59,792 bases of DNA from Candidatus Heimdallarchaeota archaeon (GTDB lineage Archaea; Asgardarchaeota; Heimdallarchaeia; JABLTI01), in contig JABCTZ010000039.1 of assembly GCA_018238155.1 (NCBI GenBank), forward strand, positions 1 through 59,792, in the 5' to 3' direction. Below, one piece after another: positions 23,001 through 36,040 of this stretch (position 1 is the stretch's first letter; each line of letters opens with the position of its first letter). A program made the position numbers and the translations under genes. The notes under the pieces were generated by a model, which was not told where the DNA came from, searched no databases, and worked only from the letters and a program-made list of their open reading frames with translations.

Positions 23001-25442
23001 ATGAAGAGAAGTAACAGCTTTTTCCTAATATTATTAATAATAATGAGCATTGGCTTTGAACTAAATGCATCTGCAATTAGCAGTTCAGAACTAATCAATC
23101 GACCAAAAAATATTCCAATGAATAGTACTTCTGGAGAAATCACTTTCCCCTTTGGTAAGAATCTCCATCTTGATGGTAACAACTACTGGAATATGACCGA
23201 TTTGTTAGATGTAAACCAAACATTAGATAATCTCGCAGATTTTACCACTGAAGGTATAACAGCTTTCTCAGGTGATGATGTCATACCAGCTGTAAGTGCA
23301 AACAGACATTTAGTTAACGTTACACTCCTAAACTCAACTATTTGGAATGATAACGACATTGGTGAAGGAGAAATTTATTTCAATGTAACAATAAATGGCA
23401 ATTTCACTAAAACCATCAATTATGGCGCAAATGATGGTGATACTCTTGACCTTAATCTAGCAGTATTTTACGCTTGGTGTATAGTCCTTGATATCACCGT
23501 TGAAGTTTGGGAAGATGATCCCGCACCACAACCAGATGATGAACTAGGAATATATCATTATGCAACAACTAACCCAGTATCGCAAACCATTACTGGAAAT
23601 ACTACTATTGGTGATGCACAAGTATGGCTAGAAATAGATGTACAAGATACTACATCAGGAGTAACAGCTGAAGTTCTTGCAGATGGTTGTAAACCATATT
23701 TTTACTTTACTGACGAAACAGGAGCAACCGAGGAAGCAAATGAAACCTACGCTCGAGTGTTAGTTGGACCCGATGGGGATGCAGGACTAACAACAGCAAT
23801 TTGTATTCAATATATCTTTTGCTGGGATAAAGAGAACTTTCCATTTCCAATTAATGTGCAATTCCATGAAGACGATTACGAGCAATTCTTGATATTTATC
23901 GATCCAAGCGATTTGATGCATCCATATAGATATGTCTTTGATGACGGTAGCTATATTTCCAATACGCGCTCTCAAAGGATAGCTATCTGGGAAGACCACG
24001 CAACAACTGCTGTGCTCGAGACAGAAGCTTTTAGCTCTGAAGAGCTAACACCACTCATTGGCGATAATTACACTGCAAAATACAAATACTTTAACATGTC
24101 CGTTGTAACAGATGAGTTCCGTATGGGAACAAGTGGGATACAAACAATGAACTTGCTGGTGCAAACATCTTTCCACAACTTCCAAGAAGGACAACCAGGA
24201 ATTTTTGATATCACAACAAGTGAATTAGGATTCAACTATGCAATAGATGAATTGAATGACTCGAAAATAGCAGAATTCTTTAGAATGCATTATTACGCTT
24301 TCGAACAAGGATTATGGTGGATAGCTCATCTAGGGTTGGAATATCCTAAAGTACATCCGTTCACCTTTGATGTGGTAAATCCGTTCAGTTTTCCATACCT
24401 GATAAATGGTTACCCAAATGTAGTGGATGATATAGATGCATTCGAGGAAGCAAACAGTAATTTCATCAACTATGAATATGGCATAGACCTCACCCTCGCA
24501 CTGCTAATGAAAGCCAGGTATACGATAACCTCTCCTGAACTAGTGAACCCAGGGGATACATTCGATGCTACAATTGAAATCGAAATACTTGAAGACGACA
24601 CAGAAATTGCCTTGCTATACGATCTCTTCTTAAATGGAACGATAAAAGCACTATTCTTTAATCAGAACTTTTTATTTGACCACGAAGGAAAAGTAAGTGT
24701 GAATATACCAATAGGCAAACTGAGCTTGCTACTCTCACTGCTAGGATATCAACCATATGAACAAAGTGGGTTGAGCATAGACAGTAGTGGCTATTTAACA
24801 ATGGATCACCTGTATTTAGCACCAAACCTACTTGGAACAATAATGGCACTAAATATGACTCTAGATATTTGGGATATGATAAAAGGAGAATTACCAGGTT
24901 ACTACCCAGCAACAGAGAAACCATTAAACCTACTAGATTATTTCATGGAGTCAATTGAACTAACATTAGGAGCAGGATTTGAAGGCTATAATACTGGAAC
25001 AATCAGTTCAAACAATACCGCTTTAGCAACTGTAGGAACAGATGAATTCACTTTTGATGGAACAACAATGTCAACAACAACAGAGGTAACAGTAGCTGAA
25101 GATATTAGTACGACCACCGGATTTGAAATTGTTCTTGATGATATGCTATTTACCTATGAATTCTTTGCTGATTGGGGACTGGATATAAACTTTGGAAATA
25201 TCATAGCACTAATTGCACCCCAATATGCTGAAATGAATTTCGATATCGGAACCTTCCCATCAATAATAGTGGATTCTGATGATAGCCTGATCGATAGCGA
25301 TTCAACGGTAACGAAAACAACGACAGTAACTCTCGACTCTATTACCCCAACGAATACAGGTGGAATAATTCCTACAATACTAACCTTGTTAGCTATTTCT
25401 GGTTTAGGAACGCTTGTTATTATTCGAAAACGAAAGAAGTGA
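23001..25442 (+). CDS. Large secreted/surface glycoprotein with C-terminal membrane anchor
   Basis: Signal peptide, many N-x-S/T sites, Thr-rich linker, TM plus RKRKK tail. Confidence 0.85.
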   Translation: MKRSNSFFLILLIIMSIGFELNASAISSSELINRPKNIPMNSTSGEITFPFGKNLHLDGNNYWNMTDLLDVNQTLDNLADFTTEGITAFSGDDVIPAVSANRHLVNVTLLNSTIWNDNDIGEGEIYFNVTINGNFTKTINYGANDGDTLDLNLAVFYAWCIVLDITVEVWEDDPAPQPDDELGIYHYATTNPVSQTITGNTTIGDAQVWLEIDVQDTTSGVTAEVLADGCKPYFYFTDETGATEEANETYARVLVGPDGDAGLTTAICIQYIFCWDKENFPFPINVQFHEDDYEQFLIFIDPSDLMHPYRYVFDDGSYISNTRSQRIAIWEDHATTAVLETEAFSSEELTPLIGDNYTAKYKYFNMSVVTDEFRMGTSGIQTMNLLVQTSFHNFQEGQPGIFDITTSELGFNYAIDELNDSKIAEFFRMHYYAFEQGLWWIAHLGLEYPKVHPFTFDVVNPFSFPYLINGYPNVVDDIDAFEEANSNFINYEYGIDLTLALLMKARYTITSPELVNPGDTFDATIEIEILEDDTEIALLYDLFLNGTIKALFFNQNFLFDHEGKVSVNIPIGKLSLLLSLLGYQPYEQSGLSIDSSGYLTMDHLYLAPNLLGTIMALNMTLDIWDMIKGELPGYYPATEKPLNLLDYFMESIELTLGAGFEGYNTGTISSNNTALATVGTDEFTFDGTTMSTTTEVTVAEDISTTTGFEIVLDDMLFTYEFFADWGLDINFGNIIALIAPQYAEMNFDIGTFPSIIVDSDDSLIDSDSTVTKTTTVTLDSITPTNTGGIIPTILTLLAISGLGTLVIIRKRKK

Positions 25443-25469: not shown

Positions 25470-25844
25470 TTAATTAGTAACTAATACTATTTTCTTTAAC
25501 TTTTCACTAAATTTATCCAATATTATTCTTAATTGTTTTTCATTTTTGATTAATTGATAACGTTTGTTTTTATGAATGTATACTGGCAGAGGAAATGAAT
25601 TATCTATTATTTGTGTTGCATCTTTTGGCAATTTTGGTGGAATAATATTTCTTTTTATAATAATATTCTTACCTAAAAAGAGTTGTGAGCTATATTCTTT
25701 CAAACTGATTTCTTTTAATTCCTTCATAACCCTTAAATCATCAGGTTTTTTACTAACAATTATTGGTGATTCAAATTCAATATCCAATTGCTCTAAATGG
25801 TCATTTTTTAGAATTTGAATTCTACCAATATCTAATTCGGACAT
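25470..25844 (-). CDS. Hypothetical protein downstream of the PLD gene
   Basis: 124 aa ORF with GGTGGGAG RBS-like sequence upstream. Confidence 0.55.
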   Translation of the reverse strand: MSELDIGRIQILKNDHLEQLDIEFESPIIVSKKPDDLRVMKELKEISLKEYSSQLFLGKNIIIKRNIIPPKLPKDATQIIDNSFPLPVYIHKNKRYQLIKNEKQLRIILDKFSEKLKKIVLVTN

Positions 25845-25989
25845 TCTCCCACCCTTTTCTGTGATTTGAATGTTTGCTAAATAGAAGAATAACTATCTCG
25901 ACCAAAAAGCAATACTAAATTTACAATGAGAGGGTCAACAGTTAACAATAATACATGATAACTTAATATAAAATTTAATATTTTCAAAT

Positions 25990-27360
25990 CTACTTTGTTC
26001 TTTTAGTATTTTTCTGTTTACTTCTTGGCAGATATTCCCATAGAAATGTAAATGTTTTTGCTGATTCCTTCAATCCTTCAGGTATTTTCAACATGGACTC
26101 AAAATCCTTTACGTCTCTTATTTTTTCGTTATCTAATTCCCCTAAAGTTATTTCTTTATTCTCTACTATCTGAAAATGTTCTTTATTCTTTTTCCACCTT
26201 ATATAGGAACCTGTTTTCAAGTTTTTTATTTTTTTACTGTTGAAAAACGTTGCAGGTATAATCTCATTCCAGGATTTTACTATTGGTAGAATAATCTGAA
26301 TCTGTTCCTTCGTAAGAAAGATTCCTACATCATAACTATCATTAAAACTTTGTGAGGTAAGATTTCCGGTAAAAATCATACCGATTGACTTTCCCTTCTC
26401 CTCAATAAACATTCCTTTCATATGTAATAATGTGTGACCTTTAATTTGAGCGCCACTTTCTTTTAGCTTAGCTAAAGGTTCAACACCCTTTCGACTTGGA
26501 CGTGTATAGATATGTAATTTTCTCCCATTTTGTAGTTGTTTAATAAGGATATCAAAGAGAGAAGTAGATTGTTCAATTGAGAAAGTACATAAATGAATTG
26601 GTCCTGTTGTTTCTTTAATTGTTTCTTCCAGAGTATCCTTAAAACCTATATCTTGATTAGCGCCGAATATATGGTCAATTTTTAGTTTGTCAAATAAATT
26701 TTCATTTATTTTCTTAACAGATCTTAGAGACTCTTTAGAGAGAGATTCGTGCTCTGCTTGATACCAAAAAGCATAGCAGAATGTATTGAATAGATTAACA
26801 ATTTGTTTTTTATTTAGTTTAATACCTATTTCTAAATTTTTTGATAAAGCGTGTTGAGTGAAATTTGCACTTGAAAGATAGCCTGCAGGATTTTCATTTT
26901 TGGGGTCAATTAAAACATATTTAGCATGGAAATGACGTGCTGTTCTAATAAAACATTTTGTTTTTAAAATTCTCAATAATTTTTTATGCTCATCAATTCT
27001 ATCATTTTCAGTTTCGCTTTCTTTACCTTGATCTTTATTTAATCGTTGTTCTGAAGCAGTTAGAAGATAGATTCTTACACCTTTTTTCGAAGCCTTTAGA
27101 AGAGCATTTGTAATTTCAGTTTCTTGAATTAAGAAAGAGCAAATAACTACTAATTCTTTAGCTTTTTCAATTGCTTTTGAAATTTCTCTTTCAAAAATAC
27201 GATTCTTTCCAATAAACCATATATCAGGAGAATAGAATTCTTTCATTTTATTATCAAAATCACCTGATGTATCAATATGCCAGATGTTCTCTAAAGATAA
27301 AAGATTATCAATAGTTTTTTTATTATTTTTTAACAACACTTTCAAATTCTTTTGACTCAT
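25990..27360 (-). CDS. Phospholipase D-family nuclease (two HxK domains)
   Basis: FHAKYVLID...SSANFT and LHMKGMFIE...TGNLT; abuts the upstream gene (27361/27360). Confidence 0.9.
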   Translation of the reverse strand: MSQKNLKVLLKNNKKTIDNLLSLENIWHIDTSGDFDNKMKEFYSPDIWFIGKNRIFEREISKAIEKAKELVVICSFLIQETEITNALLKASKKGVRIYLLTASEQRLNKDQGKESETENDRIDEHKKLLRILKTKCFIRTARHFHAKYVLIDPKNENPAGYLSSANFTQHALSKNLEIGIKLNKKQIVNLFNTFCYAFWYQAEHESLSKESLRSVKKINENLFDKLKIDHIFGANQDIGFKDTLEETIKETTGPIHLCTFSIEQSTSLFDILIKQLQNGRKLHIYTRPSRKGVEPLAKLKESGAQIKGHTLLHMKGMFIEEKGKSIGMIFTGNLTSQSFNDSYDVGIFLTKEQIQIILPIVKSWNEIIPATFFNSKKIKNLKTGSYIRWKKNKEHFQIVENKEITLGELDNEKIRDVKDFESMLKIPEGLKESAKTFTFLWEYLPRSKQKNTKRTK

Positions 27361-28461
27361 CTAATTATTCTCCTTTTCAGCTATGGGGATTAAATCTAAG
27401 GGTGCTTTAACAAACCAAAATGCGTTAGGAATATTTTCTAAATCTAAATCTTCTTCCATTTCTTTTGCCAAAATTTCATGTGAAAGAAATTTAATTGTAA
27501 AACCTGGGAATAACATAGAATTTTGTTGTATGCGTTCAATAAAAACAGCATCAAATAAGAAATCATTTATATCATGTTTTAAGAGCCAATTTGCCCATTT
27601 ATTGGCATCAACTTCAGTTTTTGGTTTAATATCAACTTCTACAGATGTTGAATCAAATACTCCAAAATCAATGATGTTTGGGGATTTAAATTTAATTTTC
27701 TTCTTAAAAGTCATTTTTTCCGTGTCTGATATATTACTGTGAACTTCTAATTTATTATCATTCCAATCCCAATCCGTTATTCTATTTGCTAATAACTCCT
27801 CCCAAATTATTTGGAAGTTGGGGAAATAATCGATTTCTCTGTGATTATCATCAAAAATTCCTGTAGTTTCTAAGATGCAAGATTTCTTAGTTAAATTAAT
27901 TGAAACCACCATTTCTAAGTTTTCTATTAATTCAACTTTTTCAGAAATAGATTTTACATTTATCTCGGTTTTTTCATCATCGAATAATTGCTTGCCTTCA
28001 ATTTTCTCTATATCCTTCAACCATCGAGGGATATCTATTAAATTGATTGGATTCTCATCAGGTTCCCTAATTTCATTTCTAAAATTAATATTTTCATCAA
28101 TAAACTGAAAATCTAAAATCCTCTGAGGAATTAATTGATCTTTAGTAGCATAAAGATAAGACACTCCATCATAATAACGATAGATCATTCCATCTTCTAT
28201 TGCTTGAAAACCTACTTCAGTTATTTTGTATTCATTGTCAAGCACTTCATATTCAATGCACCTTCGTAAAATATTTTCCGCCATTTGATTGTGATATCTA
28301 AATAAAAATTCTTTGCAAACAATTTTCTTTGATAATTGATTATTATTAGACTGAGCTATTAGCAAAAGGGCAATAATATCAGATCTCTCTTCTTTTCTTC
28401 CTATATCTAAAATAACTTTGAATTTACTAACTGCTATTTTTCTTTCCAGTTTTATATTCAT
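27361..28461 (-). CDS. Uncharacterised protein with N-terminal wHTH-like region, in the helicase-PLD operon
   Basis: 366 aa; ...YKITEVGFQAIE; 10-nt gap after the helicase. Confidence 0.75.
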   Translation of the reverse strand: MNIKLERKIAVSKFKVILDIGRKEERSDIIALLLIAQSNNNQLSKKIVCKEFLFRYHNQMAENILRRCIEYEVLDNEYKITEVGFQAIEDGMIYRYYDGVSYLYATKDQLIPQRILDFQFIDENINFRNEIREPDENPINLIDIPRWLKDIEKIEGKQLFDDEKTEINVKSISEKVELIENLEMVVSINLTKKSCILETTGIFDDNHREIDYFPNFQIIWEELLANRITDWDWNDNKLEVHSNISDTEKMTFKKKIKFKSPNIIDFGVFDSTSVEVDIKPKTEVDANKWANWLLKHDINDFLFDAVFIERIQQNSMLFPGFTIKFLSHEILAKEMEEDLDLENIPNAFWFVKAPLDLIPIAEKENN

Positions 28462-28471
28462 AATAATTCAC

Positions 28472-31054
28472 CTAGATTGTTAAATCATCTTTAATATTAG
28501 CTAATTCTTGCAAAATTGATGAATAATTTTGCTCACTAAAGAATGTTCTATTTCCAAGCATGACAAGTTGATATCTTGCTCTAGTAATTGCTACATTTAA
28601 TCGATTAATTGAGTTAAGAAAACCTACACTGTTTGTTTTTACAAATGAAAGAAAGACAATATCTGCTTCTTGACCTTGAAATCTATCAACTGTACATACT
28701 TTGATTTTTACGTTATAATCTTTGAGAATGAATTCTCTTGAACCAATCTTAAAACCAAAGTGATTCAATAATAAGCTATGAAGAAGATCCTCCTGGTATC
28801 TGTAAAATGTTAAAATGGCTACTTCCCATTTTCTATTGGATTTTTTAGCATATTTCAAGAACTCATCTAATTCAATTATTAACCGATTTGCTTCATTGAT
28901 ATTAATATTCATTTTTGAAAAATTTCTATCTGTTATATTAATCCAAATTGATCTTGAAGCATATTTTGAATAATTCCAGTTGCGCTTTTCAACCATTAGG
29001 GGATTATCTTTCAATGCCATACCGTCATAGATATAATTTCTAGGAAATTCCGATATTTCAGGATGCATTCTATGTTGATATTCCAACTTTTCAAATCTGA
29101 TTTCTAAATCCTCGTCATTAAAACCATTTCTAATAACAGAATGCTTCCATGGTTCAAGATTCTTATAATCAATAAAACCCTCTTTTAACAATTCGATTAT
29201 AGATGGAAAAGCAACTTTCTTTATTGTTGTAAGATTCCTCCTTAATTTTTCTAAATCATATGATTTGAAATATTGAGGAAGCAATTTTTCAATATCATCC
29301 TCTAATTCTATTTTGATTGAATCATTTTCGGAATATCTTAATGTAAAAAGACGTACTAAACGCCATGCGAGAAGTTCTCCAAAACTTCCTCTATACCTTT
29401 TTGAAAGTTTCTCAGTCTCGAAATACTTCTCCCAATACGAATGTGCGTTTCTCATTTTTTCACTAAATCCTTCACCCAAATGAAAAGAATCCATTGGAAA
29501 AGATTTTTCATATTTTTTTACGGTTTCAGGTGAACCTATGAAAATTTGAGATCCAAGGAAAACCGGCGAAAATGGTTCTGGGTTATTATCTAAATTAATG
29601 TAGTCCAAATTTAATGAATCAAATTGCTCCATATATTTTTCTCTGTTTTTTAAATCAGCTTCTGATATTATTGTACTATAAGAATCATATTTCCAACAAC
29701 AAAAAGCTGCCCTGCATATTAATTGATCATCTAAAGGAATAATACTATCCAACGTTTTTTTAATTATTAAATCATCAACAAATGGAGATAGTTGCATATT
29801 ATCACCAACTAATATCCATCTTTTGCAGAACAGTGCTGGAACAATAAATTCTTGAAATGTCGTTTTGCTTGCTTCATCGATTATTAGTAAATCGAAAACA
29901 GCTTTTGGTGTTGTTTTTTCGGCTTCTATATCGGGATGTTTTAAAATGCCCATTACAGTACCACATACTACATTGGCATTATCTAAAATTAATCGTTCAA
30001 TTTCTGATTCGCCTATATCAGATTGAAGAACGTTAAGATAATAGTCCTGACCCACACTTTTTGACTTTCCTAATTTAATTAACTCATTGCAAATTCTTTC
30101 TCTTTCAGTTCTTTTTCTATTTTCAAGAAAATATTTCTTAATAGTTTCAGGAATCAATGGATTATTTTCATTCCCAATCCTTACAGCGATAACCTCTTCC
30201 CTATCAGCAATTTTTTCTAGAACATTATCAACTGCAACATGAGTTGAGGCACATAGCAGTACTCGCTTATTTTGTTTCACAGCTTGAAGAATCAATTCAC
30301 AGATAGTTAATGTTTTTCCAGATCCAGGGGGACCATGAAGAATTGCAAAATCTGATGTGCTCAAAGCTTTTTGAACAAAAATCCTTTGGCTATCTACTCC
30401 AGGAAAATCCGGATCATTAAGTAATTTCCAATCATCTATTGATTGTACTACAAAGTTAGGCCATAAAGAAAGGTCTTTCACTTGAAATAATCTAAGTAGA
30501 GGTCTATGCTCTTTTCTAGGTTTGGATTGAAGAGCATAAATTGCTTTTACTTGTTGATGAAAATCATAAGGGTTGCCTTTATAAAAAATATATTCAGAAT
30601 TAACTTTTCTATCAACTTGTAAGACGTTAAACATTGGAAAGCTTTTCAATACATAAATCCAATCATCTCGGCTATCATATTTTTGTACTTTTTCTCTTAA
30701 CACTTTTGCTTTCATAAAATCCTCAAAGGTATCCTCATCAATTTTACCTGAAGGGTCATATATTTGTATAAATTCACCATCTGATACACTAATTTCATCA
30801 AGTTCTGTTTTTTCAAAACCATATTTATTCCAAGAATCCAGTTTAATTTGTTTTAGCATGTCTATTATCAGTTCTTTAGATAAAACTCGAAATGGTAATC
30901 GTATAACTCTGTCTTGTTGGAGATATCTCGCATTATTTAAATAAAAAGTGAAATCAAGAAGAGTATAATAACAATCCTTCCTAAATCTATCCATGTTTTC
31001 TTGATCAGGTAAATCAGGTAAATCAGGAAGATTGTAATAGTATAATTCTGACAT
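28472..31054 (-). CDS. SF1B helicase of the Upf1/DNA2-NAM7 family (AAA_11/AAA_12)
   Basis: HGPPGSGKT, LCASTHVAVDN, IIDEAS, LVGDNMQL, QHRMHPEI, TVDRFQGQE, NRLNVAITRAR. Confidence 0.95.
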   Translation of the reverse strand: MSELYYYNLPDLPDLPDQENMDRFRKDCYYTLLDFTFYLNNARYLQQDRVIRLPFRVLSKELIIDMLKQIKLDSWNKYGFEKTELDEISVSDGEFIQIYDPSGKIDEDTFEDFMKAKVLREKVQKYDSRDDWIYVLKSFPMFNVLQVDRKVNSEYIFYKGNPYDFHQQVKAIYALQSKPRKEHRPLLRLFQVKDLSLWPNFVVQSIDDWKLLNDPDFPGVDSQRIFVQKALSTSDFAILHGPPGSGKTLTICELILQAVKQNKRVLLCASTHVAVDNVLEKIADREEVIAVRIGNENNPLIPETIKKYFLENRKRTERERICNELIKLGKSKSVGQDYYLNVLQSDIGESEIERLILDNANVVCGTVMGILKHPDIEAEKTTPKAVFDLLIIDEASKTTFQEFIVPALFCKRWILVGDNMQLSPFVDDLIIKKTLDSIIPLDDQLICRAAFCCWKYDSYSTIISEADLKNREKYMEQFDSLNLDYINLDNNPEPFSPVFLGSQIFIGSPETVKKYEKSFPMDSFHLGEGFSEKMRNAHSYWEKYFETEKLSKRYRGSFGELLAWRLVRLFTLRYSENDSIKIELEDDIEKLLPQYFKSYDLEKLRRNLTTIKKVAFPSIIELLKEGFIDYKNLEPWKHSVIRNGFNDEDLEIRFEKLEYQHRMHPEISEFPRNYIYDGMALKDNPLMVEKRNWNYSKYASRSIWINITDRNFSKMNININEANRLIIELDEFLKYAKKSNRKWEVAILTFYRYQEDLLHSLLLNHFGFKIGSREFILKDYNVKIKVCTVDRFQGQEADIVFLSFVKTNSVGFLNSINRLNVAITRARYQLVMLGNRTFFSEQNYSSILQELANIKDDLTI

Positions 31055-31064
31055 TGTTCTCTCC

Positions 31065-32012
31065 CTATGTACAAATATTTCTTTTTTTTCTTTTCAGTAT
31101 CTTTAATGACTTTCTCTTTATCCTAAATAAAGATTTTTTATGAGGATCACGATAATAGAAACCATTTCTTTGATTGAATTTTTCTTTTTGCCAAGTAATC
31201 TGATTAAATGCTTTCAAAACACCAACTGAGAATATTGATTCACTATATCTATGAGTGCCTGTTGTGTCATCAAAAAATCGTCCTATAGGATCAATCATAA
31301 TATATGATCCTGTAATTAAATCATTACTTTCAAAAACAGCATAAGAAATTTCCTTGTGGTTATTTTTGAATGCAGCAAATTCGATTGGTGTGATTAGTAG
31401 TTTTTCAACAGAACCATTATTTTGTCCATCTACTTTCAAAACTTGAAAAATTTTCCATCTGATTGGTTCAATTTCTCTAATTATTTCATTTAAATCTTCA
31501 AACCAATTAAGTTTGGTAATTACTGAGTTTAATTGCAATTGAATATTATAAGATTTGATCAATTTAGCTGTTTCTTTAATTGAATCAACATAATAACCCC
31601 AACCTCTGCCCAATTTTTTCTCAGTTTCATTTGAAGGGCTGTCAAGACTTAATGTAATATAATCAATATGTTTTCCATAATTAGCTAAAAACTCGGCATC
31701 AATATTTGTCCCATTAGAAACAATTTTAGTAACTAATCCCACTGATTTTGAGCGTTCCAATAATTCACCAATATATGGACAAAGCATTGGTTCTCCTCCA
31801 ACTAAAGTTAGTTTCTCGGTTCCCACATCTTTTAGCATTGCAGGAACTTTCAAAGCCAATTCTTTTGATATTATCTTTTTAACATCATTAAATGTAGCAA
31901 AACAAAACTTACATTTCATATTGCACCATGGCCAGAAATGCCAATTAACGCTTATTGGTTTATTTTGTAATGATTTTTGTTTTGGCATAAAGAATACTAT
32001 GTTAAAGAACAT
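31065..32012 (-). CDS. rsad2: Viperin (RSAD2-like radical SAM antiviral enzyme); start likely 31988
   Basis: SVNWHFWPWCNMKCKFCFATF, GGEP, IVSNG, LSLDS, LGRG, RWKIFQVL, ESNDLITGSYIMIDPIGRF, RNGFY viperin motifs. Confidence 0.92.
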   Translation of the reverse strand: MFFNIVFFMPKQKSLQNKPISVNWHFWPWCNMKCKFCFATFNDVKKIISKELALKVPAMLKDVGTEKLTLVGGEPMLCPYIGELLERSKSVGLVTKIVSNGTNIDAEFLANYGKHIDYITLSLDSPSNETEKKLGRGWGYYVDSIKETAKLIKSYNIQLQLNSVITKLNWFEDLNEIIREIEPIRWKIFQVLKVDGQNNGSVEKLLITPIEFAAFKNNHKEISYAVFESNDLITGSYIMIDPIGRFFDDTTGTHRYSESIFSVGVLKAFNQITWQKEKFNQRNGFYYRDPHKKSLFRIKRKSLKILKRKKRNICT

Positions 32013-32103
32013 ATTAAAACATAGTCTTTTATAGTAAAGGTTTGATTTGTATTATAAAACACAATCATTAATAATATAAACTCGATAATTATAGTGAATT
32101 ACT

Positions 32104-32760
32104 ATGGAAGTACATATAGCTACAGTAGGTTTAACAATTGAACCAATTTTCCACGGCGTAAATGCTTATACAATTGATAAATTAATTCTACTACACAGCA
32201 ATGATGACAAATCACATGAAATTTCAGTAGAAATTTCTAAGGTAATTCAAAAAATGAATATTGATTATGAAATTATTGAAATTGATGCATTTGATCTAGA
32301 AAACGTAATTATTTCCATAATGGATGTTCACAAGAAGCACAATAGGGATAATGTTTCTATTAATCTCACAGGTGGCACTAAGGTTATGGCTTCTGCGGCG
32401 TTATTAGCAGGTTACATTTTAGGATTAAGAGTTTATTATATACAAGATGGATCTAATGAAAGAAACAAAGGAAAACCAAAGAAAGAACTAGTGATTGAAT
32501 TACCAGTTCCAAAAACTAACATTCATGATTTAGAAGATACACAGAGAAAAATTATTTCTTATATTTATCAAGAAAATGGAATGTTGGAAAGAGCAAATTC
32601 TGCCTTACATGAAGAATTGAAGATAACCAAACAAAATGCTAGTTATCATTTAAAACAACTAGCTTCAAAAGAATTAATCACACTAAAAATAGATGGCAGA
32701 AACAAGATAGCAACATTAACAAATACTGGAAAACTTTTTGCTAGAATCGTTTCAAAATAA
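32104..32760 (+). CDS. CARF-wHTH transcriptional regulator (Csa3/DUF6293-like)
   Basis: HIATVG...INLTGGTKVM CARF motifs; C-terminal wHTH ITKQNASYHLKQLASKELI...LTNTG. Confidence 0.88.
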   Translation: MEVHIATVGLTIEPIFHGVNAYTIDKLILLHSNDDKSHEISVEISKVIQKMNIDYEIIEIDAFDLENVIISIMDVHKKHNRDNVSINLTGGTKVMASAALLAGYILGLRVYYIQDGSNERNKGKPKKELVIELPVPKTNIHDLEDTQRKIISYIYQENGMLERANSALHEELKITKQNASYHLKQLASKELITLKIDGRNKIATLTNTGKLFARIVSK

Positions 32761-32841
32761 CCAACATTTCAACTTTCTATCAAGCAAGCTTTTTATTTTG
32801 CAAATTCAATACTTGATTGGAATAGAGGTTAGGTTGTTTTA

Positions 32842-33354
32842 ATGTCAAGTAATAAATTGTGTTATATGATTTTTTGTGGAACAAGCCCTTATTCAATTAT
32901 TAATTCATTATGGGCATCTATTGATATAAAAGGAATAATACCAACAAAGATCGTTCTTTTAGTATCTGAAAAGCAAAGCAGTTTTGAAAAAATAGAGAAA
33001 TCTGTTTCAACTCTAATCGAGAATATATTGGAGAAAGAATGCTCTGTAGAAACTTTAATTATTTCAGAATTTGAAATAAAGAAGAATATTGCACTGCTTA
33101 TGAAATATATTGATAGTTTAGGTGAACAGAAAAAACATTTGATTTTAGATATAACACCCGGTAGAAAAACAATGAGTATTTCAGGTGTATTATTCGCAAA
33201 TAATGCTTTGAAACAAAAAATAATCACCAGTGAAGATTTGCATCAAATTATTTACTGGCATCTAATTGACAGTGATAAACATTATAGTAAATGGTATCCT
33301 GAAATTCCAAGAGAGAATTTTAACTATGTAGACTTAATGGAAGTTATAAAATGA
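32842..33354 (+). CDS. Standalone CARF-domain protein
   Basis: CGTSPYSIINSLWA and ILDITPGRKTMS CARF motifs; overlaps the next gene by 4 nt. Confidence 0.8.
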   Translation: MSSNKLCYMIFCGTSPYSIINSLWASIDIKGIIPTKIVLLVSEKQSSFEKIEKSVSTLIENILEKECSVETLIISEFEIKKNIALLMKYIDSLGEQKKHLILDITPGRKTMSISGVLFANNALKQKIITSEDLHQIIYWHLIDSDKHYSKWYPEIPRENFNYVDLMEVIK

Positions 33355-34448
33355 TTATCTCTTGCTCTGAAATCGAAATAATTCTAAATGAATTATTAGC
33401 ACAAAATAATAAAGAAATCACATTAGCTCCTTTCTTTCCAGAAGAAAAAATGTTCAATTATGATTTAGAGAATAAAAAATTACTTCTTAAAACAAATCCG
33501 CAGAATTGGAGGGTGTTCATTGATTTCTTAACAAGAGAATATTCTCTTTCAAGAGCAACAAAAAAGGAATTGCCAGAATTTGACGATATAATAAAAGCAG
33601 TTATTTCTGCAGGATTACTAATGCCCAAGGGAATTGATGATTTAATCAAAGAAATAAAAAATTACTTGACACCAGTACAGAGAATGAATAGAAGAAAACG
33701 ATTCTTAATAGCACTAGATACCAACCAACTGATTGATAATTTAATGAGTAGCTATGTAGAAAGAGAATTCTCAACAAAAGAGAAACAGCAAATGAGAAAT
33801 TTTATTAGCTATATTATATCCAGTTGGGTACTTTCTGAAAGAGATGGATTTATGAGAAATGAAGAAAATAAAGGCATAAAGGAATTAAATAGAAAATTAG
33901 AGGAATGGGATTTTTATCTTCCAGAAAAAATAGATAGAAAAGCAAGATTAGGATATTCGATTTATTCAGAATTGAAATCATTAGAAGAATCCTATACTCA
34001 ACTAGAGAGTAAAAAATTATCAGAAGAAAAATATGAAATAATGAGAAATAAAAATCTAAAAGACCAAGCAATAGTTGAGGAATACGAAGATTACATAAAA
34101 TCGTTGAAAGACGTAAAATTTGTTTATGTAACAGCCGATGACCAATCTTATGCACTTGCTAAGGATCGTTTTGAAAGTGTTAAAGTAAAAGTGGAGAATA
34201 GAATACCCAAAGAATTAGACTGTAATTTCGAAAGTGGTGCAAAACTAATCTATCAATTAGCTTTATTTTTAGGATTTCTAAGAATCGATAGCTATGATAT
34301 TAAATTCAATATCTATTATAAAGGAAAAGAACATGATCATTGGGAGAATAAAAAACTAAAATTTCTGTGTTCAGATAAGAAATTTGATAAAAGAATCACT
34401 AAAGTTATCTCAACTATTCGGGAATTAAAAGAGTGCTTAAAAAATTAA
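33351..34448 (+). CDS. PIN-domain ribonuclease
   Basis: FLIALDTNQL...E...KDQAIVEEY...YVTADDQSYALA acidic tetrad. Confidence 0.8.
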   Translation: MIISCSEIEIILNELLAQNNKEITLAPFFPEEKMFNYDLENKKLLLKTNPQNWRVFIDFLTREYSLSRATKKELPEFDDIIKAVISAGLLMPKGIDDLIKEIKNYLTPVQRMNRRKRFLIALDTNQLIDNLMSSYVEREFSTKEKQQMRNFISYIISSWVLSERDGFMRNEENKGIKELNRKLEEWDFYLPEKIDRKARLGYSIYSELKSLEESYTQLESKKLSEEKYEIMRNKNLKDQAIVEEYEDYIKSLKDVKFVYVTADDQSYALAKDRFESVKVKVENRIPKELDCNFESGAKLIYQLALFLGFLRIDSYDIKFNIYYKGKEHDHWENKKLKFLCSDKKFDKRITKVISTIRELKECLKN

Positions 34449-34459
34449 AAAATTTAAAT

Positions 34460-36040
34460 CTATTTGCGACCTCTCATATTCGGAAAGAAATCTTCGTATT
34501 CCTTTTTTGATTTTTTTAATTTCTCAACTACCTCAAAAGCTGCTTTATTTGCACCCCCAGAACCATAGTAACTAAATAATTCCTTTCGGAATTTTTCTGA
34601 AATAATTTCCCTTAAATCATCTATAAAAGCGATTTCAGATTTTTTTATTGTGTTATATTGCTTATTTTTGAAAAATAGAAATATTAATCTGAAAAATAAT
34701 CTGATACCTAGATTTGTTTTAATAATCTTTATCATTACTGGATTTTCATCTCTAATTGCTAAATCTATTAAATCATTTATTTTGTTATAAAATTCATTTA
34801 ACTCACTTCTTTCGATATTAAAGAAATTATTTTTCCCAGTTATTTGATTTTTTAATAGTGCAGTAACAAATGTTGCCAATGTAACTGGCTTATTACTTCT
34901 TGTTTCTTCTATTCCATGGAAATAGATTTTGTTTTTCAAGATTGAATCAGATTTATTAAATTCCCTGGCTATTAATACAGCTATTCTTTCATCATAATAC
35001 TCATGTTCAAGAGGATATTTAAAATCAGCTTTTAAATTATAAAGAAGGCTAGCATCTACTCTACTTTGTGTTGAATTAATCTTTATGAAAGTATATACCT
35101 CTTTGAATTTTTCAATTTCTTTATATGCAACAACTATTAGATTAAAATTCTGTAATAATTCATCATCCAATTTAGCAAACCCATACAATCTATGTTGTCC
35201 ATCAACTAATTTCATACTACAATAACTTGAAGGTAATGTAAGGATGCCTGCTTCTGGTATATTGCGTTCTTCCAGAAGCTTTTTGAAAATTAAATCACCT
35301 TTTGTAGATACTATTATTGAGTTTGGAAAGGTAATAGATTCATCTGATTTGATAGCTTTTTTAATTGAAATTATTTTTTTATTACTTAAAATTCTTTGAA
35401 AACCTGTTATATCCTTTCGTCTACTTACATAACAAGTTTCAAGAAGCTTTTTTACTGTTAACGAGAACAAAAATACCTCTTCATTCCCTAAAAAAGTTCT
35501 AATTGCAGGTACACCATCACTGGACCAATTTTTTGGAATTTTCAATGTATGTAATAGATCTGATTTAGCATGTTTACCAATCATTTTAATTTGTCTTTCA
35601 AGATATCTATAATCAATTAAATTGAGGTAATGATTATTTTTATCTCTAAAAATATGTTCAACAGAAGGAAGTTCATCATGAGATTTTGTATGTTTTAAAT
35701 CAAAAAAAATTCGGACTATTTTTGTACCTCTAGATAATTTAAAGTTTTTTTTGATTAATTCTATATTCTTCTGATTACTCCAAAGGTTAAAAAAACGTTC
35801 CATTTTTTCTGTTAAACCATCTTTCTTTGCAGTAGTTTCAACTAAAATAACATATTTATTATCATCTATAGACCAAATCCCATCAATTTCACCTATAATG
35901 CCTTGTTTTGTAGAAAACTCAACACTTGATCCTAAATATTCAAAATAGGTATCAAAGAAAAGCTTGTTTACCTTATATTCATCTTCGTTTTTTGCATTAT
36001 TTTTAATTAAATTAAGAACCTCATCTCTTGTTTCTGACAT
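34460..36040 (-). CDS. DGQHR (DndB-like) domain protein with N-terminal nuclease-like domain
   Basis: GFQRIL, FPNSIIV, LVDGQHRLYG, FIKINSTQ; N-terminal GEIDGIW...LVETT. Confidence 0.88.
   Translation of the reverse strand: MSETRDEVLNLIKNNAKNEDEYKVNKLFFDTYFEYLGSSVEFSTKQGIIGEIDGIWSIDDNKYVILVETTAKKDGLTEKMERFFNLWSNQKNIELIKKNFKLSRGTKIVRIFFDLKHTKSHDELPSVEHIFRDKNNHYLNLIDYRYLERQIKMIGKHAKSDLLHTLKIPKNWSSDGVPAIRTFLGNEEVFLFSLTVKKLLETCYVSRRKDITGFQRILSNKKIISIKKAIKSDESITFPNSIIVSTKGDLIFKKLLEERNIPEAGILTLPSSYCSMKLVDGQHRLYGFAKLDDELLQNFNLIVVAYKEIEKFKEVYTFIKINSTQSRVDASLLYNLKADFKYPLEHEYYDERIAVLIAREFNKSDSILKNKIYFHGIEETRSNKPVTLATFVTALLKNQITGKNNFFNIERSELNEFYNKINDLIDLAIRDENPVMIKIIKTNLGIRLFFRLIFLFFKNKQYNTIKKSEIAFIDDLREIISEKFRKELFSYYGSGGANKAAFEVVEKLKKSKKEYEDFFPNMRGRK

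Follow-up and report, generated by a model that had tools for sequence, protein, structure and literature searches.

A viperin-led helicase–adaptor–nuclease operon with divergent CARF genes in a Heimdallarchaeota genome: a candidate signal-controlled antiviral regulon

Why does a viperin gene head a tightly packed gene cluster that also encodes a UPF1-like helicase, an unnamed protein (X) and a phospholipase D (PLD)-family nuclease? The cluster lies in a stretch of 59,792 nucleotides from Candidatus Heimdallarchaeota archaeon (GenBank assembly GCA_018238155.1, contig JABCTZ010000039.1), which in its entirety we call the window. An earlier note, made from the letters alone, had described a composite antiviral system of the Mokosh kind, in which transcripts terminated or stalled by the viperin product are sensed by the helicase and cut by the nuclease. 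We found that the composite is real and recurrent, that the proposed hand-off of substrate, though possible, is unsupported, and that on balance the locus is probably a signal-controlled antiviral regulon of seven genes, comprising two separable effector modules under one regulator in which a CARF domain is fused to a winged helix-turn-helix (wHTH).

Viperin, helicase, X and PLD genes run in the same direction on the minus strand with intergenic gaps of 10, 10 and 0 nt, as had been reported for this locus before, and GGAG or GGTGA lies 6–11 nt before the start codon of each internal gene, resembling a Shine–Dalgarno (SD) motif. The spacers of this minus-strand operon read TAG-GGAGAGAACA-ATG and TAG-GTGAATTATT-ATG; a GGAG sits inside the 10-nt spacer preceding the helicase ATG, and another about 10 nt ahead of the PLD ATG, which abuts the stop codon of X. 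Upstream of the helicase gene, the 10-nt gap holds no conserved promoter-like box, and viperin, the first gene, has a TATA-like box and lacks an SD motif. The gaps and SD-like motifs bear out the claim that the four genes form one operon, and matches to NF038283, PADLOC models and Pfam families agree with the identities first proposed for its products: a viperin, a Upf1-like helicase, a protein of no known family and a PLD nuclease. The operon ends with the PLD gene at 25990, so that the left end previously set at 25470 has to be moved inwards; it takes in a 124-aa open reading frame (ORF; 25470–25844, minus strand) that probably does not belong. This ORF, which matches no family and has a GGGTGGGAG motif of its own, is separated from the PLD gene by 145 nt on the downstream side; we ruled it out as a fifth member, since no related locus conserves it. 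With three genes on the opposite strand, the whole unit amounts to seven genes, 25990–34448 (Table 1). A scan for sigma-70 promoters and intrinsic terminators, which is uninformative for an archaeon, found 35 of the former where 41 were expected, and 2 of the latter where 2.1 were.

Table 1. Features of the viperin–helicase–X–PLD operon and the divergent CARF arm, in positions of the window
Feature	Position	Strand	Description
Viperin ORF	31065-32012	-	315 aa; conserved start ATG at 31988 gives 31065..31988, 307 aa; first operon gene
UPF1-like SF1B helicase (HEL)	28472-31054	-	860 aa; AAA_11/AAA_12
Protein X, winged-helix adaptor, unnamed family	27361-28461	-	366 aa
Two-HKD PLD-family nuclease	25990-27360	-	456 aa; PLDc_2
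CARF-wHTH transcription regulator, Csa3-like	32104-32760	+	divergent from viperin
Stand-alone CARF protein	32842-33354	+	170 aa
PIN-like protein	33351-34448	+	365 aa; start overlaps CARF gene by 4 nt (ATGA)
Imperfect palindrome, candidate operator	32026-32060	.	11-bp arms, 13-bp spacer; between divergent promoters
TATA-like box TTTTAATAT	32011-32019	-	centred ~27 nt upstream of conserved viperin ATG

Judged by its sequence, the first gene is a bona fide viperin of the standard prokaryotic type (pVip). It scored 269.3 bits against the curated model NF038283 (cut-off 180) and 259 bits against the PADLOC pVip model, and in a phmmer search the solved viperins 5VSL, 6Q2P, 6B4C and 9DFW matched its residues 14–287 with E-values of 1e-48 to 1e-50. 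The CxxxCxxC motif of radical SAM enzymes reads CNMKCKFC (ORF residues 30–37), with all three cysteines invariant in 23 relatives. Across an alignment of seven loci the second ATG of the frame is conserved, and because the first ATG sits inside the equally conserved TATA-like box, viperin probably starts at M9 and its mRNA is probably leaderless. The protein is predicted to make chain terminators of the 3′-deoxy-3′,4′-didehydro-nucleoside triphosphate (ddhNTP) type and to protect against viruses. Of 48 Asgard viperins tested alone in E. coli, ten were active against T7 (Leão et al., PMC11291487), and viperin can therefore act without the helicase–X–PLD trio. Previously, pVips have been found alone or with nucleotide kinases (10.1101/2023.09.13.557418; PMC11291487). 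The window gene resembles them in scoring above the curated cut-off and in having relatives that carry a UMP-kinase-like gene right after viperin; it differs in being translationally linked to a helicase–adaptor–nuclease trio, under a CARF-wHTH regulator. Two loci elsewhere showed other surroundings of viperin. In L077:2248-3927 (genome G045), viperin lies within a 559-aa open frame, possibly a viperin fusion, followed by a UMP-kinase-like gene, with no helicase before the contig end. In L003:9678-12449, genes for NrdG-like and NrdD-like anaerobic ribonucleotide reductase proteins and a dNK/thymidylate-kinase-like protein lie downstream of the viperin–trio operon, and nucleotide-supply genes thus adjoin the maker of a nucleotide analogue.

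The second gene encodes a superfamily 1 (SF1) helicase that matched AAA_11 and AAA_12 at 128 and 127 bits and the helicase part of the PADLOC MkoA model at 281 bits, with Walker A, Walker B and motifs V and VI kept in 24 relatives. Its AF2 model (pLDDT 85) gave UPF1 2xzo (E 1e-23), IGHMBP2, SETX/Sen1, ZNFX1 and DNA2 as best Foldseek matches, and a likeness between the first 222 residues and the 1B barrel region of UPF1/SMUBP-2 is treated here as a lead only. No kinase family was found in the protein with Pfam at E≤0.1. The nuclease gene matched PLDc_2 in two stretches (95.5 bits), and H145, K147, D152 and N166 of its first motif, together with H313, K315 and N333 of its second, are invariant in 21 relatives. 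Thus, over 21–24 loci the catalytic residues are kept in all three enzymes: the cysteines of viperin, the helicase motifs and, in each PLD motif, the H, K and N. Against the Mokosh MkoB model the nuclease scored weakly (32 bits), and better against models of DrmC (75 bits with PADLOC and 64 bits with NCBIfam, cut-off 133). At L063:385-3717 (genome G139), the trio helicase is 1110 aa long, about 250 aa longer than the others, and its branch in the helicase tree is very long.

Protein X, encoded between these two enzymes, belongs to no family in Pfam, NCBIfam or PADLOC, and its kin in the ESM Atlas are unnamed bacterial clusters. A profile search nevertheless retrieved 500 cluster representatives at E≤1e-3 and 302 at ≤1e-10, nearly all of them 355–415 aa long and matched end to end, including many from Gammaproteobacteria. 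In the AF2 model (140-row alignment; pLDDT 94.3, predicted template-modelling score 0.85), a long N-terminal beta-hairpin (residues 3–25) is followed by a wHTH (25–92), beta-rich parts and a C-terminal helical region. VIA-align matched the wHTH to 2x4h (Z 9.1, root mean square deviation 1.7 Å over 64 residues), to MarR proteins and to the wHTH of Csa3 (Z 8.1). Foldseek found no whole-chain match to the model in the PDB at E≤0.001; since the VIA-align matches cover the wHTH only and residues 93–366 are barely tested, we do not claim a new fold.

Modelling of X together with the nuclease supports an interaction between the two, in which the C-terminal helix of X is predicted to bind PLD. The complex scored 0.82, compared to 0.00 for the best of three controls. 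Of 80 solved complexes 58 scored as high, as did 2 of 110 mismatched pairs, figures that apply here only roughly, since we supplied our own alignments. Separate runs agreed in ≥92% of contacts, with partner pLDDT ≥85. The predicted interface places X 336–362 against PLD 70–98, 134–137 and 185–226, and includes conserved residues on both sides, namely W349 (invariant) and D356 (near-invariant) of X, and R96, Y98, F194 and W199 (all near-invariant) of PLD.

Is the association of viperin with these three genes more than an accident of one contig? Close homologues of X (58–77% identity) occur on metagenome contigs from several samples, and all seven families of such contigs keep the order viperin–helicase–X–PLD wherever the contig is long enough; the downstream flanks vary between related loci, whereas the block stays intact. 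X was present in 23 of 400 genomes of the phylum (Asgard), representing 19 of 85 genera, and in maps of its surroundings in these genomes helicase, X and PLD are always together. Scanning 83 genomes of the window's class for viperin gave 17 full genes in 16 genomes. Eleven of these genes lie directly upstream of a helicase (G000, G082, G011, G015, G018, G051, G052, G075, G055, G053 and G047), in genomes that span four families of the class, and six stand apart from a trio. Four of the 11 loci have a UMP-kinase-like gene between viperin and helicase (pyrH_arch at 127–152 bits, below cut-off), and one has a gene for an NYN RNase in front. Since it recurs in 11 genomes of four families and on independent metagenome contigs, the adjacency is far beyond chance. 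The linkage is thus not peculiar to this genome, as it would have had to be for the refuting condition named in the earlier note to hold, and it recurs in several arrangements. Two further contigs carry viperin–helicase–X–PLD and viperin–CARF–helicase–X–PLD; the latter order, a rearranged one, is that of L086, L085 shows a further combination, and a scan of genome contigs with X returned three loci. In Promethearchaeum syntrophicum MK-D1, which shares its phylum but not its class with the window genome, a solo CARF gene heads the trio, and viperin (233 bits) and an NYN RNase occupy a divergent arm. There, genes for an OLD/TOPRIM ATPase and a UvrD-like helicase (Gabija-like; L001:1-3202) adjoin the viperin arm, so that this region, too, is a defence island.

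Trios lacking viperin exist too, among Loki-type genomes and other classes of Asgard archaea as well as among proteobacteria, and X lies between helicase and PLD in every locus examined, archaeal and bacterial. Nearly every Asgard trio is accompanied by a CARF-wHTH gene, a solo CARF gene or both, often with a PIN-like or NYN gene. In conjugative elements of the Vibrio type, the order is helicase (909 aa), X (369 aa) and PLD (510 aa), followed by a 481-aa protein that among NCBIfam models matches RtcR best (191 bits over positions 69–441 of 530, below cut-off), on account of which we regard it as a paralogue of the CARF-AAA+ regulator. The RtcR-like genes that end proteobacterial trios matched NF038308 at 191 and 107 bits, both under the cut-off of 650. 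The Vibrio-type block adjoins AbiE between tra genes, and an alphaproteobacterial conjugative plasmid carries the same four genes (helicase, X, PLD, RtcR-like). We conclude that helicase–X–PLD is a widespread unnamed trio, a kinase-less relative of the Mokosh and cnuHE modules. In one bacterial locus (L087:1508-10209), the trio directly follows genes for a patatin and a CD-NTase (SMODS/DncV-like) on the same strand, with an unnamed 248-aa gene in between and a DUF6998-like 185-aa gene afterwards, an arrangement that possibly links the trio to a source of cyclic nucleotides. Also, in a Loki-type locus without viperin, a 366-aa protein encoded after the PLD gene (L051:12099-13199) has weak RNase III and dsRBD matches (E 1e-5).

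The trees of helicase and viperin do not tell the same story. Viperin-linked helicases fall into two separate clades: the window helicase and those of six metagenome contigs are nested (Shimodaira–Hasegawa-like approximate likelihood ratio test 100) among Loki-type trios, and a second clade unites those of the eight remaining genomes of the class. The Loki-type trios around the window clade are that of G241, without viperin, and a Promethearchaeum pair, of which MK-D1 has its viperin in the divergent arm. A single clade of viperin-linked helicases was rejected by the approximately unbiased (AU) test (p 1.9e-76), with a group chosen after the tree had been seen. In the viperin tree, in contrast, the window protein groups (support 100) with those of two genomes of the same genus, one of which has the other type of trio and one no trio. 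Compared to the window, G082 of the same genus is 64, 73 and 69% identical in viperin, CARF-wHTH and PIN-like protein, but only 35, 24 and 31% in helicase, X and PLD. The trees and these identities therefore indicate that viperin and the CARF genes were inherited vertically as a block, behind which one trio cassette replaced another while the architecture was kept. Read from the sequences, such a swap argues for selection on the combination, and it argues against intimate, co-evolved contacts between viperin and trio.

On the other side of viperin, the divergent CARF genes, previously set down as a separate finding, share the operon's conservation and probably serve to control it. The regulator matched HFX_2341_N at 67.7 bits (cut-off 30) and CARF_Card1 at 35.6 bits (cut-off 24.6), and its residues 140–215 match DUF6293_C and HTH_20, a C-terminal wHTH; against the Csa3 model TIGR01884 it scored 45 bits, under the cut-off of 60.2. 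Its gene holds the same position in L003-5, L010, L016, L057, L059, L062, L065, L069, L075 and L079. The solo CARF protein matched CARF_Card1 (E 6e-5) and, weakly, the Crn1 ring nuclease (E 8.5e-4); its gene is co-conserved in L003-5, L010 and L057, and is found elsewhere in the locus in L059, L060, L063 and MK-D1. The third protein had no match in Pfam, and an ESM feature search placed it at 0.96 to archaeal clusters in which 12–24% of members carry PIN_4; its gene is co-conserved at 68–86% identity in L003-5, L010 and L057.

The spacer between the CARF-wHTH and viperin genes is itself conserved. An alignment of seven loci showed 34 invariant columns, where the flanking proteins are only 45–70% identical, and these columns cluster at three sites: an 11-bp inverted repeat with a 13-bp spacer, the TTTTAATAT box and the viperin ATG at 31988. 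Eight of the nine columns of the TATA-like box are invariant over the seven loci; its promoter role is read from what archaeal promoters generally look like, and the spacing between box and ATG suggests a leaderless viperin transcript. The arms of the palindrome match at 9 of 11 positions in the window, and at 11 of 11 in L010 and L016; this putative operator (32026–32060) is probably bound by the CARF-wHTH regulator. A candidate source of the CARF signal is a SMODS gene on another contig of the window genome (G000 contig C42:15728-16072, L084; 35.5 bits, in a 472-aa frame). Beyond the CARF/PIN arm, at 34460-36040 on the minus strand, a 526-aa protein has a DndB domain (DNA-sulfur-modification-associated, 52.8 bits), which fits a defence island, and directly downstream of the operon an 813-aa ORF (23001-25442, plus strand) has no Pfam family at E≤0.001.

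We compared the locus with the defence systems that it most resembles. In Mokosh type I, a helicase gene with a Ser/Thr kinase domain (MkoA) accompanies a PLD gene (MkoB), in type II the two are fused (MkoC), and mutants of helicase and PLD each abolish defence (Millman et al., 10.1101/2022.05.11.491447). The window shares with type I a UPF1-like, COG1112-type helicase with intact ATPase motifs and a separate PLD nuclease. However, its 860-aa helicase matches only the helicase part of the 1112-position MkoA and lacks the Ser/Thr kinase, X is an obligatory third gene between helicase and PLD, and CARF regulators and viperin are attached. The type I label therefore fails on the kinase domain and on the two-gene layout; the type II label fails on the fusion, as helicase and PLD are separate ORFs here with stop codons between them. 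Closest in described logic, as judged by domain content, is cnuHE, in which the gene after that of the UPF1-like CnuH typically encodes CnuE, where an elongated wHTH and a nuclease are fused (Bell et al., eLife 2024, PMC11090510). The nuclease of CnuE consists, in CoCoNuT type III-C, of two PLD domains; RtcR-like CARF genes often accompany these modules, and the predicted target is RNA (PMC11090510). The trio likewise has a UPF1-like helicase followed by a winged-helix protein that brings a nuclease, and an RtcR-like CARF association; unlike in type III-C, the wHTH (X) and the two-HKD PLD are split into separate polypeptides that are predicted to bind. No McrB-like GTPase (CnuB), McrC-like protein (CnuC) or Hsp70-like CnuD is among the conserved genes, and no Pfam match to CnuB/CnuC-type partners was found in the seven conserved genes or in four flanking ORFs, so the CoCoNuT label fails for want of McrB/McrC partners. 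DISARM was rejected as well: the PLD matches DrmC models, but neither DrmA nor DrmB is among the conserved neighbours. As in Csa3 and RtcR, one protein combines a CARF sensor with a DNA-binding domain, and its gene diverges from the putative target genes; bacterial trios use an RtcR-like CARF-AAA+ protein in this role. Unlike Csa3, the window regulator scores below the Csa3 cut-off and has no CRISPR array or Cas10 associated.

We found no paper describing a viperin–helicase–X–PLD composite; in work on the defence systems of Asgard and other archaea, viperin and Mokosh appear as separate entries, with no mention of a link. The viperin literature that we searched considers kinases as gene neighbours or none at all; a preprint on viperin evolution examined only kinase neighbours (10.1101/2023.09.13.557418), and the word 'viperin' is absent from the CoCoNuT paper (PMC11090510).

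Starting from the gene identities, the intact catalytic motifs, the operon structure, the conserved linkage, the cassette swap and the predicted X–PLD interface, we infer a ligand, an operator function, a nucleic-acid target and an antiviral role for the trio as follows. The Csa3-like CARF-wHTH regulator, back to back with the leaderless operon, probably binds the palindrome between the two TATA boxes and, on binding a nucleotide-type signal, would switch on both arms. In the operon arm, viperin would convert a pyrimidine NTP to a ddhNTP chain terminator; relatives insert a UMP-kinase-like gene directly after viperin. Helicase, X and PLD would form a complex in which the helicase translocates 5′ to 3′ on viral RNA or single-stranded DNA, X holds PLD by its C-terminal helix and offers its winged helix to the nucleic acid, and PLD cuts. 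In the divergent arm, the solo CARF protein and the PIN-like protein may act either as a further RNase gated by the signal or as an off-switch for it. Viperin and the trio would work in parallel, as a layered defence, and not obligately on each other's products.

Several points weigh against this regulon. That the trio is antiviral we propose from its genomic surroundings and its resemblance to Mokosh. For the PIN-like protein we have only a lead from a language model. AT-rich and surrounded by TATA-like sequences, the palindrome may owe part of its conservation to promoter elements. As for the signal, Cas10 (Cmr2, Csm1) was not found in the genome, a negative that falls short of proof as the assembly is 90.7% complete, and the single CD-NTase-like gene in the genome lies on another contig. 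The post hoc choice of the group used in the AU test counts here as well. Finally, the repeated, independent joining of viperin to a trio, which we take as selection for a combined programme, could equally mean that the two interact mechanistically.

This last point leads to the rival that survives best, although we consider it rather unlikely. A polymerase stalled by ddhNTP, or a transcript blocked at its 3′ end, would be recognised by the UPF1/Sen1-like helicase, and X–PLD would destroy the RNA or the template. The tight operon with its 10-nt gaps speaks for such coupling, as does the joining of viperin to at least two trio lineages, with gene order varying, a sign that the pair itself may be selected for. 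The helicase model, moreover, resembles UPF1 and Sen1/SETX, proteins that act on aberrant ribonucleoproteins and on stalled RNA polymerase. Against it stand the trios without viperin in Loki-type Asgard genomes and proteobacteria, the 6 of 17 class viperins apart from a trio, a cassette swapped without co-evolution of viperin, and the lack of any sign of a ddh-specific sensor domain; Asgard viperins also work alone in E. coli (PMC11291487). The same observations (trios without viperin, viperins that stand alone, viperins that protect by themselves, and a cassette exchanged behind an unchanged viperin) weaken the hand-off of ddh-RNA to helicase and nuclease put forward in the earlier note. A broader version, in which viperin and trio act as one mechanism that clears ddh-blocked polymerases or transcripts and the CARF regulator senses a non-CRISPR signal, for example cyclic-phosphate RNA ends as in RtcR, appears to us less likely again.

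It is also improbable, and more so than either form of coupling, that the trio is not antiviral at all and serves RNA quality control, or the maintenance or competition of mobile elements, with its link to viperin incidental. UPF1-like helicases do have housekeeping roles in eukaryotes, and the bacterial copies of the trio reside on conjugative elements and plasmids. Yet the distribution is patchy (23 of 400 Asgard genomes), the neighbours include the defence genes AbiE, CBASS-like, Gabija and DndB, and the trio is linked to viperin and CARF genes.

We give little credence to the idea that a pVip and a Mokosh-like system are two independent neighbours in a defence island, sharing neither regulation nor function. 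The window is a defence island, each module is found alone elsewhere, and for MK-D1 PADLOC lists pVip, Mokosh type II and Gabija separately (10.64898/2026.02.13.705702), but the helicase follows viperin after a 10-nt gap with an SD-like motif and without a conserved promoter-like box, 11 of 17 class viperins hold the same position, the architecture outlived the cassette swap, and the flanks differ among loci around an intact block. Least probable of all is that the radical SAM enzyme is the signal maker, its nucleotide product or 5′-deoxyadenosine being the CARF ligand by which the effectors PIN and PLD are gated. No other enzyme of the unit modifies nucleotides, and its CARF genes lie in a genome where no Cas10 was found, but we think this unlikely because CARF-linked trios exist without viperin, Loki-type and bacterial ones keeping their CARF or RtcR-like genes, and in addition the protein scores as an ordinary viperin over the curated cut-off and its relatives carry the UMP-kinase partner typical of ddhNTP supply.

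The seven-gene unit is assembled from known kinds of parts, and it is the combination that is new, not the kind of system. It nevertheless brings to light a widespread, unnamed helicase–X–PLD module that current defence finders split or mislabel as Mokosh, and gives a predicted role to the unannotated X family with its at least 500 cluster representatives. Asgard viperins, which have been proposed as the source of eukaryotic viperin, have hitherto been examined one gene at a time; roughly two thirds of those in this class lead an operon, probably under CARF control, that also encodes a UPF1-like helicase, an adaptor and a PLD nuclease, providing a testable case in which a chain-terminator strategy is bundled with nucleic-acid destruction under one inducible switch. 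Were the broader version of coupling to hold, in which viperin and trio are one mechanism and which we consider unlikely, the archaeal kin of eukaryotes would possess an interferon-like, inducible, multi-effector antiviral programme, built from the same kinds of protein as eukaryotic immunity: viperin, a UPF1/MOV10/ZNFX1-type helicase and a PLD nuclease.

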